From a virus (lineage: Duplodnaviria > Heunggongvirae > Uroviricota > Caudoviricetes), in the IMG/VR virus record IMGVR_UViG_2548876940_000013, positions 1 to 24,224 of that record: DNA of 24,224 bases; one strand, written 5' to 3'. Positions 2,986 through 6,252 of the stretch are shown here, piece after piece (position 1 is the first letter of the stretch; every line of letters starts with the position of its first letter). Below the pieces are notes generated by a model. The model was not told the DNA's origin. It saw only the letters and a program-made list of their open reading frames with translations, and searched no databases. Both the position numbers and the translations under genes were made by a program.

Positions 2986-3124
2986 TTGTAGTTATCTCTC
3001 ACCTCGCTGATACAGCAGGTGCAAATTGAGGGAACATCATGTACAGCAAATTAGAAGCGGAAACGTCAAAGAAGCCGAACCAATGGATAACTGCGAAATA
3101 GACCAGGACCAACGAATCCCCAGC

Positions 3125-3160
3125 CCCAGAAACGACAAAACCCGCTCGACGGCGGGTTTA
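3125..3160 (-). terminator. tR-prime-like terminator of the short late leader transcript
   Basis: 8-bp GC stem aaacccgc / gcgggttt (3138-3145 / 3152-3159) with a 6-nt loop, followed on the - strand by the T-rich tgtcgtttctgg. Lies between the Q-proximal cargo and the holin, as in lambda pR-prime/tR-prime. Confidence 0.4.
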
Positions 3161-3169
3161 AGCTGTGTG

Positions 3170-3270
3170 GCGAAGTAACCACTCTTAACACGATACAATA
3201 ATTTTTGCGTACGCGTTAGCGTTTTTGTAAGATTAACAAATAAATCGAAAAATCATAATCGGATGATTTC
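3170..3270. promoter_or_regulatory. AT-rich divergent control region: candidate late promoter/Q-utilisation site (- strand) and promoter of the cargo cassette (+ strand)
   Basis: Roughly 100 bp AT-rich, non-coding on both strands, located between the tR-prime-like hairpin and the start of the 3271 gene. No confident -35/-10 assignment. Confidence 0.3.
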
Positions 3271-4293
3271 ATGGCAAAATTAAATGCTAGCGAAAGACTC
3301 GTTACTCATCATAGTCTGACCATTGACACAAAGTTTAGAACCAAGGCAACACAAGAGGTAAAAGCCCAGTGTATATGTCCTGTTCCGGAAATGTACATGC
3401 TTGCCCCATTGATTGTTAAACAAAAGGGACTCGTTCATTCATATGATTCTGGGAATATTGTAGTTACTCTCCAAGATGTACAACTTTATCCTTTACTTCC
3501 AGATAACTCACCCACGCATATTGTCCTTCTTATTAATAGTGTTGATAAAAATGGAAGTACTACCGTTGTAAAAAATATAAATACTAATGAACGCGTTGAA
3601 ATCCAACCAAAATATGAACAAGGTGAAGGCTATGAAGTTTCTACCTATGTTGTCATATCATTAAATGGAAATAAAAGAACCTATGATATGATTTGTACAT
3701 CTACCCCAGGTGTATCTACGGCCCGGTTAAATAGTTTTTTAGACAAAATTCTCTTTGAAGTGGCGAAAGACAATGAAGACTTATTTACCGCAAAACATCC
3801 AACTAACGTTATTTCTGCAACATCAAAAAAAGAAGTAAAAATACGATACAAACCAATATTTGAATTTACAGGAATGTTAGACAAGGAGCTTTTTAATAAA
3901 ATAAGCCAAAAAGGATTATCAGATGTCATATTAGTCAAGGATCAATTCGGAACAATTAATGCTCCTGATGTTAATTCACCTTACATTCCGACTGAAAGTA
4001 CATTAAAATTACTTCCAAATCATGGTGACAATGTTATTGGATGGATTAAAAATGTAGCATCTCATTTCAATAAAAAAATGAATGGTGGTTATGATAAATT
4101 AAAGGTTAAATTCCAAGATCCTGAAACAAATAAACCAAGGCAGGTTGATTTCAAAACCTCAAACATCAATCTTAATAATTTAGAAAAAACATTTATTAAG
4201 AAAAGCATTATCGATAACTTTAATTCGCGCCTGAAGGATTCATATGTTAAAATTGAACTAGAGTTTGTTGTGAAAATGATAGATTTGATGTGA
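3271..4293 (+). CDS. Hypothetical 340-aa soluble protein, first gene of the Q-lysis cargo cassette (candidate defence/abortive-infection component)
   Basis: Clean 340-aa ORF with ATG start, visibly AT-rich, antisense to the late operon. Lys/Asn-rich; no motif I recognise. Confidence 0.6.
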   Translation: MAKLNASERLVTHHSLTIDTKFRTKATQEVKAQCICPVPEMYMLAPLIVKQKGLVHSYDSGNIVVTLQDVQLYPLLPDNSPTHIVLLINSVDKNGSTTVVKNINTNERVEIQPKYEQGEGYEVSTYVVISLNGNKRTYDMICTSTPGVSTARLNSFLDKILFEVAKDNEDLFTAKHPTNVISATSKKEVKIRYKPIFEFTGMLDKELFNKISQKGLSDVILVKDQFGTINAPDVNSPYIPTESTLKLLPNHGDNVIGWIKNVASHFNKKMNGGYDKLKVKFQDPETNKPRQVDFKTSNINLNNLEKTFIKKSIIDNFNSRLKDSYVKIELEFVVKMIDLM

Positions 4294-4300
4294 GGTTATT

Positions 4301-4885
4301 ATGCCAATACTTTCAGTTTTCTCTCATCTAGGCAAGCCGTTTGGATATCTTTTTATTAAAGGTATTAGCGGCAAAGCTGCATATGATTGGGTAGCACCAA
4401 TTCTACTTACTTCTATCACAGCAGTACTTTTCATTCTATTAAAAATCCCTGTCAAAGATTTATTTGATGACAATGGTTTCATTAAATCAATCGTTTCATT
4501 TATCTCTAACCTACCAGGGTTTTATATTGCCGCTCTGGCCGCCATAGCAACTTTCAATAGAGCTGAGATTGATTTACCATTGATTAGCAATGAAAGAAAT
4601 GCCTCTATTGAAATAAAAGTAACAAAAGAAAATGGAAAAGTAGTAAATTCAGAGGAGGTTCTGACCAGACGATTATTTCTTTGCATGCTATTCTCTTTTT
4701 TAACAGCATTAAGCATTGTTATAATAATACTTAATGCTATATTTTCACCATTAATCAATGTCTATCAAAACAGTATTGTTTTAATGGTTTATACTGTTGT
4801 ATTTACTTTCCTAGTTTGGCAACTCTTAGTATCAACTTTCTTTGGATTATATTATCTCGGAAACAGAATTCATATGAATTATTAA
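4301..4885 (+). CDS. Hypothetical 194-aa integral membrane protein (about four TM helices), second gene of the cargo cassette
   Basis: ATG 7 nt after the stop of the upstream gene, with the SD gagg overlapping that stop (operon). Four hydrophobic segments, roughly aa 30-50, 60-85, 125-148 and 159-186. Confidence 0.6.
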   Translation: MPILSVFSHLGKPFGYLFIKGISGKAAYDWVAPILLTSITAVLFILLKIPVKDLFDDNGFIKSIVSFISNLPGFYIAALAAIATFNRAEIDLPLISNERNASIEIKVTKENGKVVNSEEVLTRRLFLCMLFSFLTALSIVIIILNAIFSPLINVYQNSIVLMVYTVVFTFLVWQLLVSTFFGLYYLGNRIHMNY

Positions 4886-4906
4886 GCCCTACAGGGGCTT
4901 AATAAT
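4879..4906. other. Perfect 11-bp stem hairpin spanning the convergent stop codons of the cargo cassette and Q
   Basis: ttattaagccc-taca-gggcttaataa. The stops of the 4301-4885 gene (+) and of Q (-) lie 3 nt apart inside this structure. No U-tract on either side. Confidence 0.4.
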
Positions 4907-5239
4907 CAACAAAATACCTTCAATCACTCCTATTGCTGCTTGAAGTTGTTTTCTGATTGACCCGTCAGAGCATTTCCGTTTCTTTGCTATTGAACGGAGT
5001 GAAATACCGATAACAAAGTGAGCAATGATCAGTTCATATTCTTCTGGCTTATATTTCCGCAATCGCGCAACACAGCTGTCAATCATGATTCCTTCATCAT
5101 CATCGCATTGTTGGCGTATTTTCTTTCCATGAGGTAGTAAACCTTTAAACCCTGCAGCAACAGGCTGCCAGTCCACACCACTGTTATCTGCTGCAGCCCA
5201 TGCTCCCCAGCGGTCCAATACTTCATACATATCACGCAT
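4889..5239 (-). CDS. Late-gene antitermination protein Q (QuuD-like)
   Basis: Motifs VLDRWGAWAA, GFKGL and a Cys/His-rich centre, as recalled for DLP12-type Q. Track start is TTG at 5254; the ATG at 5239 has the SD ggagaagg. Located directly upstream of the lysis cassette. Confidence 0.7.
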   Translation of the reverse strand: MRDMYEVLDRWGAWAAADNSGVDWQPVAAGFKGLLPHGKKIRQQCDDDEGIMIDSCVARLRKYKPEEYELIIAHFVIGISLRSIAKKRKCSDGSIRKQLQAAIGVIEGILLIIKPL

Positions 5240-5256
5240 CAACCTTCTCCACAAAA

Positions 5257-6252
5257 TCAGGCCAGCACGCCAATTGTCAGCGCACGATCGATAAAACGAA
5301 ATATCAGCTCCAGCTGGGAGCCATACTTCTCTTCAAATGCCACGGTATCCGCATGCAGCTCGTCGTGATGCTTTCTGCACAAAGGCAACACAAAGAGATC
5401 ATGCGCTTTTGTACCCATTCCACCCTGACCGTGGCCTATCAGGTGGTGGGGATCATCAGCGGGCTTTCCACAACATGCACACGGCTGTGTCTTAACCCAG
5501 CGCGTGTACTTTTCATTAACCCAGCGGCGACGTTTTGGGCGTAACATAAAAGACTCCGGCGACTCCGGATCCACTTTCAGCGCCAGCACCTTTTTCGCCT
5601 TATCCTGGATGATGCTGGTGGCAGGAACCGAAGGCACAAGGTCACTTTCCCGGGAGACAGACGGCACAACAGGCTTCGGTAATCTCAGTGCCTTACGGGC
5701 TGCACTTTCCGGTAAGGCATCCGCCAGGTCATTACGAATCAGCCACCAGCACAGTTCCGGCATTGTCACAACGTGACTATCATCAAAACCGAGATCCCGA
5801 CGCACAACAGACAACACCCAGCGGGCACAGTTATCCGTTGCCATTGATTCCAGCCGTTCCGTGAACTGATCGCGCAGCTGGTTATCGCAGTGCCAGCACA
5901 GACGGATTGCGCCCGGAGCGTGTCGCATTGTGGTCATGTTCTCGCTGTGCCAGTCGGAATGAGGCCACTGACAGCCTTTTTCACGAAGTAACCAGCTTTC
6001 AAGACATTCCACGCCACCAGCACGACGGATCACTGCCTCATTGCGGAACACGGCCCGAACGGCAGGATCATCCGCCAGCGGTTGTGATGCCGCCGGAACG
6101 GCACCGCTGGCGAAAGATGAATAACGTTCCGGCTCAGGCTCCAGCAGGACACGCCCCTGCATAAACAAGGGCATCAGCTCTGAACCTGGCCTGAACAATA
6201 CGATCCCCATACGCGGGGCAATTTCAGGGGTCAGTAGTGCTCTCACGGTCAC
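5257..6252 (-). CDS. DUF968/YdfU-like phage protein
   Basis: 331-aa ORF with a C-terminal Cys/His-rich HNH-like motif CACCGKPADDPHHLIGHGQGGMGTKAHDLFVLPLCRKHHDELH. nin-region position. Start ambiguous (GTG 6252 or ATG 6210). Confidence 0.55.
   Translation of the reverse strand: MTVRALLTPEIAPRMGIVLFRPGSELMPLFMQGRVLLEPEPERYSSFASGAVPAASQPLADDPAVRAVFRNEAVIRRAGGVECLESWLLREKGCQWPHSDWHSENMTTMRHAPGAIRLCWHCDNQLRDQFTERLESMATDNCARWVLSVVRRDLGFDDSHVVTMPELCWWLIRNDLADALPESAARKALRLPKPVVPSVSRESDLVPSVPATSIIQDKAKKVLALKVDPESPESFMLRPKRRRWVNEKYTRWVKTQPCACCGKPADDPHHLIGHGQGGMGTKAHDLFVLPLCRKHHDELHADTVAFEEKYGSQLELIFRFIDRALTIGVLA

Follow-up and report, generated by a model that had tools for sequence, protein, structure and literature searches.

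RexAB of phage lambda and the Rex-type pairs RexABpp of P. putida, gp30/gp31 of mycobacteriophage Sbash and gp44/gp43 of CarolAnn have a common layout: a soluble A protein is followed, at close spacing, by a B protein with four transmembrane (TM) helices, and the pair is carried as prophage cargo. For lambda Rex and RexABpp, the A:B ratio matters for function. Sucellos (SclA/SclB), cassette 68 of the V. cholerae N16961 superintegron, is structurally RexAB-like and has no Pfam match; neither gene is dispensable, SclB is a putative TM pore, the system has its own promoter, and infected cells are killed or arrested (Darracq et al, bioRxiv 10.1101/2024.07.02.601686). Here, we analyze a two-gene cassette with a similar layout in the IMG/VR virus record IMGVR_UViG_2548876940_000013, positions 1 to 24,224 of which form the 24,224-nucleotide (nt) stretch that we call the window. 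Its genes, A (3271-4293, + strand, 340 aa) and B (4301-4885, + strand, 194 aa), lie between the antiterminator gene Q and the holin gene of a lambdoid prophage. With moderate confidence, we favor reading them as a self-contained, horizontally mobile module for Rex-like abortive infection that belongs to the PADLOC candidate family PDC-M53 and rides on the prophage as cargo.

The PDC set comprises 145 untested phage defense candidates, taken from cassettes located within BREX, DISARM or type I restriction-modification (RM) loci (Payne et al, 'guilt by embedding', bioRxiv 10.1101/2024.01.29.577857). Among them, PDC-M53 corresponds to cassette CAS_00171 and is a computational candidate without an assigned fold or mechanism (bioRxiv 10.1101/2024.01.29.577857). 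Protein A matches the PADLOC-DB v2 model PDC-M53A (PDLC04696) with an E-value of 2.1e-32 (residues 7-340 on profile positions 4-318 of 320), and four more M53A models match it as well. Protein B matches PDC-M53B (PDLC04699) with an E-value of 1.8e-54 (residues 6-193 on profile positions 2-187 of 188). The genes are adjacent, on the same strand and in the order A then B, as in the PDC-M53 definition; by profile match and gene order, the cassette is a member of this family. The first-pass annotation, made from the sequence without database searches, had proposed an undescribed exclusion or defense module. The PADLOC check removes 'undescribed', as both proteins are already PDC-M53A and PDC-M53B in PADLOC-DB v2; the proposed exclusion or defense role gains from this match, from the status of the cassette as variable cargo and from its mobile-element contexts. 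To PDC-M53, we add here the assignment of A to the RexA/RdgC fold and a survey of the Q-adjacent slot. Pfam and NCBIfam do not annotate either protein, the two PHROG families are listed as 'unknown function', and a sequence search of the PDB with the A and B profiles found nothing.

The two proteins travel together with little exception. In species-representative genomes, B genes were located by a DNA pattern for the invariant motif in its second TM helix (TM2), which returned 58 true B genes, and the presence of A was counted only at loci with DNA reaching far enough upstream of B to look for it. On this basis, 43 of 45 species genomes have A immediately 5' to B, with both genes on one strand. 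Among the IMG/VR loci read, 75 of 80 contain B, and A is also present in every assessable contig (57/57). In 39 of the 43 pairs, the two genes overlap or leave a gap of no more than 15 nt. Protein B forms 682 clusters at 90% identity, in Gamma- and Betaproteobacteria, and A forms 505 clusters at 50% identity, nearly all of them 315-340 aa long. Mean pairwise identity is 37% for B versus 24% for A, with B exceeding A in 98.8% of pairs. Conservation of B far above that of A, with the invariant residues of B in TM helices, fits a conserved effector joined to a fast-evolving sensor. A 330-aa open reading frame (ORF) near a Vibrio pair (locus L013, 4197-5186) was considered as a homologue and rejected.

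The AlphaFold model of B (predicted local distance difference test, pLDDT, 78 for A and 88 for B; predicted template modeling score, pTM, 0.70 for A and 0.84 for B) contains TM helices at residues 25-46, 60-84, 123-154 and 158-189, which coincide with the peaks of its hydropathy profile; the four TM helices read from the sequence by the first-pass annotation are backed by model and hydropathy alike, and A has none. A beta-hairpin occupies the 40-residue loop between TM2 and TM3. The invariant motifs of B are LPGF(Y/F)IAALAA in TM2, TRR before TM3 and WQ...GLYYLG at the end of TM4. The highest-scoring structural hit of B, at a template modeling score (TM-score) of 0.42-0.47 that is not significant (E 1.3), is a 165-aa uncharacterized protein of Sbash, the phage with the Rex-like gp30/gp31 system; this protein is not identified as gp31. 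A small multipass inner-membrane protein as prophage cargo is the classical superinfection exclusion (Sie) arrangement, and B could accordingly be imagined to block DNA entry or injection at the envelope in a Sie/Imm-like manner, with A as an accessory and with survival of the infected cells. Known Sie systems, however, need no 340-aa cytoplasmic partner with a DNA-clamp fold, and the validated analogues act through growth arrest or death; we consider envelope exclusion distinctly unlikely.

Protein A is soluble and basic (pI 8.9). Its model finds its best structural matches in lambda RexA and RdgC, and A is predicted to adopt the RexA/RdgC two-domain fold. According to Adams et al, the structural relatives of RexA include RdgC, CHL4 and IML3. 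A Foldseek search of viral models with A returned four uncharacterized phage proteins, with E-values from 6e-11 to 5e-8, as well as an RdgC of phage origin at E 1.8e-4. To the relatives of the fold we add CENP-N, which we take to be the human counterpart of CHL4.

The cassette is rare variable cargo that moves as a fixed A-then-B unit across Proteobacteria. It occurs in 9 of 5426 complete E. coli genomes, always beside Q. A Citrobacter prophage carries it in the same Q-to-holin slot with unrelated lysis genes, and in a Serratia P4-like satellite the pair directly follows the integrase gene, a site comparable to the psu-int hotspot of Rousset et al; Psu was not detected in this satellite. The pair adjoins an Eco29kI restriction-modification pair in a P2-like Halomonas prophage and, in Vibrio, a gene set that resembles Zorya II, a label inferred from Pfam domains only; in Chromobacterium, it lies in an integrative island. 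Among the immediate neighbors in IMG/VR (n=116) are 26 Q genes, 8 S-type holins, about 9 CI-like repressors, 6 N6/N4 methylases and 5 portal proteins. Taken together, the loci support a distribution in mobile-element variable regions and defense hotspots. Non-tailed PM2-like temperate elements of Vibrio cyclitrophicus, 13-15 kb in size, such as Vibrio phage 10N.286.54.C7_PE001 (Vinavirales; L082, 6001-7546), likewise carry the pair beside the integrase. We considered the Vibrio members as integron cassettes and rejected the idea, having found no attC-like repeat arrays in the V. coralliilyticus or V. tasmaniensis loci.

These contexts bear on two further explanations. In the roughly nine viral contigs with a CI-like neighbor (among IMG/VR loci L083-L162), the pair stands directly beside a repressor with a helix-turn-helix domain plus S24 peptidase, which is the position of rexAB in lambda. 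Such a setting would suit a role in prophage physiology other than defense, with A as a modulator of the lysogeny switch or of recombination that B tethers or regulates at the membrane; the fold class of A covers RdgC, which regulates recombination, and RexA, which biases the lambda switch even in the absence of RexB. The pair, however, also turns up on satellites, in non-tailed viruses and on chromosomal islands, whose regulatory circuits are unrelated, and its strict coupling and the strongly conserved TM core of B point to B as the active component, which leaves the physiological explanation unlikely. The multitude of mobile elements, together with tight coupling and AT-rich, foreign composition, would equally suit an addiction or stabilization module selected for element stability, in which B would act as membrane toxin and A as antidote, or with these roles exchanged. 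Against this stand the protein sizes, atypical for toxin-antitoxin pairs, the free exchange of cargo at the hotspots and the behavior of analogous Rex-type B proteins, which are non-toxic unless triggered; we regard addiction as quite improbable.

The locus itself is that of an SfII-type lambdoid prophage, with 99.6% nucleotide identity over positions 3000-5300 to Shigella phage SfII, in which A is SfII_50 and B is SfII_49. As the first-pass annotation described it, an AT-rich two-gene cassette lies on the + strand between Q and the holin gene, antisense to the late genes; both ORFs are intact, and the GC content falls to 0.29-0.33 across the cassette from about 0.50-0.58 in the flanks. The translational coupling proposed at the same time agrees with the junction at 4291-4303 (+ strand), where the TGA of A (4291-4293) is separated by 7 nt (GGTTATT) from the ATG of B at 4301 and a GAGG overlaps the A stop codon. 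Q (4889-5254, - strand; PF06530) forms the right border of the slot, is convergent with B and ends 3 nt from the B stop. A stem-loop spans the two stops on both strands (4875-4908, core stem 4879-4905), with a stem of 12-13 bp, folding energies of -16.8 and -17.0 kcal/mol on the two strands and z-scores of -5.7 and -4.9. In the Citrobacter prophage, where the coding DNA is only about 70% identical, this stem is preserved. The stem-loop is possibly a two-way transcription barrier, a function we only infer because a clear U-tract is absent. An Rfam scan of the window found no RNA family.

Comparison of the Q-to-S interval among phages with the same Q delimits the mobile part. Phage mEp460_4F5, whose Q is 93% identical, has in common with the window only the holin side, a 94-nt block at 3137-3230 and Q from position 4935 onward; these homology limits place the mobile segment at 3231-4934, so that the terminal 46 nt of Q fall inside the variable segment. 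Other genes occupy the site in mEp460, SfIV and Stx2a_WGPS2, which bears out the expectation that the cassette is a variable insertion and not a core phage gene. The alternative cargo, also antisense, is a pair of 343 + 179 aa in Stx2a_WGPS2 (L017, 3630-5193), a single 308-aa gene in mEp460_4F5 (L002, 2642-3568) and a pair of 356 + 108 aa in SfIV (L003, 2405-3827). We considered these genes as members of the A and B families and rejected them, as they match neither the families nor PADLOC. The slot had first been equated with the one in which Stx phages carry stx. The cassette does lie in the Q-to-S interval, but it is Q-proximal and upstream of the 94-nt block: in Stx2a_WGPS2, stx is found beyond the block and the different antisense pair takes the cassette's position, so the cassette site is not the stx position proper. 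The site just downstream of Q is a recurrent cargo position, distinct from that of stx, and the several other unknown one- and two-gene cassettes there make it worth mining.

The 94-nt non-coding block forms the left edge of the variable slot, and phages with different cargo retain it at identities of about 90% or higher. It recurs in mEp460_4F5, Stx2a phages and 434-type hybrids, which differ in cargo and lysis genes; in phage 434, it lies between an antisense nmpC-like porin gene and the holin gene. Inside it is a GC-rich, terminator-like hairpin (3159-3138, - strand; -16.2 kcal/mol), and between the window and the Citrobacter prophage, positions 3173-3229 are conserved better than the coding DNA on either side. 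A shared Q implies a shared Q target, and since the block is the sole non-coding sequence common to the phages with this Q, we place the late promoter, the Q-utilization (qut) site and the tR' terminator there: the block probably carries all three. The exact site of the late promoter was not located, and a consensus scan gave promoter-like sites no more numerous than in shuffled sequence. Read in this manner, the block would set the cassette between Q and the late promoter, divergent from the latter and convergent on Q. The block probably also supplies the -35 element of a + strand cargo promoter. A candidate sigma-70 promoter spans the block edge at 3205-3233 (+ strand; TTGCGT, 17 nt, TAAGAT) and may, tentatively, be that of the cassette; the Citrobacter homologue keeps both hexamer positions (TTGCGT, 17 nt, TATCAT). 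The cargo genes of four phages begin 38-48 nt past the block edge, as if the block provided their promoter.

Proximity to the lysis genes raises the question of whether the pair instead adjusts the lysis timing of its own prophage, for example as an antiholin-like membrane protein with a regulator. In about one viral contig in three, the pair has Q and holin as neighbors, and Salmonella phage F1055 (L081, 2403-4061) carries a divergent pair of 357 + 190 aa (hidden Markov model E-values 3e-45 and 3e-39) upstream of the holin gene and co-oriented with it. In the window, by contrast, cassette and lysis genes are on opposite strands; close relatives without the cassette lyse normally, and P4-like satellites and chromosomal islands without lysis genes harbor the pair. 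A lysis-timing accessory is very improbable. All four alternatives, physiology, envelope exclusion, addiction and lysis timing, are less likely than the Rex-like reading, because A and B are so strictly paired, the TM core of B is conserved and the host elements are so varied.

The remainder of the lysis region follows on the far side of the block, all on the - strand: the holin gene S (2659-2985), with which the lysis cassette begins, the endolysin gene (2179-2655) and Rz/Rz1. Between Rz/Rz1 and an HNH gene (133-546, - strand) is a second AT-rich pair on the + strand (616-969 and 1013-1639; GC about 0.33-0.40), which encodes proteins of 117 aa and 208 aa that belong to PHROGs 14397 and 12494 (unknown function) and have no match in Pfam, NCBIfam or PADLOC. 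The SfII reference carries IS911 and SfII_57 at this site, which looks like another cargo slot.

We propose a mechanism modeled on lambda RexAB, P. putida RexABpp and Sucellos. A lysogen would make A and B from the cassette's own promoter, in a ratio fixed by translational coupling. A would be a cytoplasmic, probably dimeric, DNA-associating sensor of a product of the infecting phage, either a protein or a DNA-protein intermediate, and would activate B. B would then oligomerize as a channel or pore in the inner membrane, and the loss of membrane potential or integrity would arrest or kill the infected cell and abort the infection. Expression in the lysogen, A-B interaction, pore formation and a defense phenotype are each what these systems lead us to expect of the cassette. 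RexABpp and Sucellos were recognized on the same kind of evidence and were shown to defend. With this reading, the PDC-M53 candidate gains a fold, a plausible mechanism and a clear natural setting, and it is easy to test in E. coli by means of an SfII-type prophage. If protective, it would add a widespread Rex-type system to the enterobacterial repertoire and support RexA/RdgC-fold proteins as a general class of phage sensors.

Several observations weigh against a Rex-like defense module. The string 'PDC-M53' occurs in none of the main texts searched. B has no significant structural match among the viral models (Foldseek BFVD), and the candidate promoter at 3205-3233 falls under the threshold of a consensus scan and is weak by consensus. 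The co-orientation of the F1055 pair with the lysis genes could mean late, not lysogenic, expression in that phage. The neighbors in bacterial genomes are heterogeneous, comprising mobile-element and RM genes. Finally, A and RexA have no sequence or profile similarity, nor do B and RexB: the RexA and RexB models of PADLOC and Pfam miss the window proteins at E-values up to 1, even though the PADLOC models do match lambda's own proteins. Alignment of the A and B profiles with hhalign against lambda RexA and RexB, and against small alignments of them (lambda, Hafnia, Klebsiella, Salmonella), gave probabilities <1%. RexA and RdgC are absent among the 25 Pfam families listed for 56 family members, and RexB is absent among the Foldseek BFVD matches listed for B. 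The Rex-like architecture suggested by the first-pass annotation holds for gene association and for the predicted fold of A, and does not extend to sequence or profile similarity with either Rex protein.

Sucellos resembles the cassette family in distribution as well. Outside integrons it is mostly found in prophages, 'often in Salmonella' (bioRxiv 10.1101/2024.07.02.601686), and reportedly also in a Nitrosospira phage; in V. cholerae it lies within VCA0367-VCA0372. By description, the cassette family is similarly RexAB-like in predicted structure and unmatched in Pfam, and its members are found in Salmonella prophages, in Vibrionaceae and in a Nitrosomonas genome. Compared on description and distribution, the two are plausibly the same family, an identity to which we give a good chance. 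No V. cholerae protein is present among the 120 best B homologues or in the scan of species-representative genomes, and Sucellos may instead be a divergent branch or a separate family. A possible, though doubtful, alternative is that PDC-M53 is neither Sucellos nor a diverged RexAB but a third, independent and very widespread lineage, in which an RdgC/RexA-fold DNA clamp has been combined with a new, highly conserved four-TM effector; at 50% identity, its A proteins would form about 500 clusters, spread over Alpha-, Beta- and Gammaproteobacteria and the viruses of these groups. If so, the 'DNA-clamp sensor plus small pore' would be a recurrently assembled immune design, and the Q-adjacent lambdoid site a general, promoter-equipped docking site for such cargo.

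Kiwa also combines a small multipass membrane protein with a cytoplasmic protein of about 320 aa. We considered it (four-TM KwaA plus DUF4868-containing KwaB) and rejected it, in line with the reversed gene order already pointed out in the first-pass annotation: the soluble protein comes first in the cassette, PADLOC gives no Kiwa match, Pfam no DUF4868 match, and KwaB is not among the structural matches. RdgC differs from A in that A is always paired with a membrane protein and RdgC is not, and A has no RdgC match in Pfam. With respect to lambda RexAB, three differences stand out: B has 194 aa and a 40-residue beta-hairpin loop, compared with 144 aa for RexB; the cassette is usually beside Q, whereas rexAB is beside cI; and lambda RexAB has an rII-type exclusion phenotype, of which none is known for the cassette. 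On the side of likeness, a four-TM partner lies directly downstream of A, as in Rex-type systems, A is basic, as is lambda RexA, and its length is comparable to the 337-372 aa of the actinophage RexA homologues.

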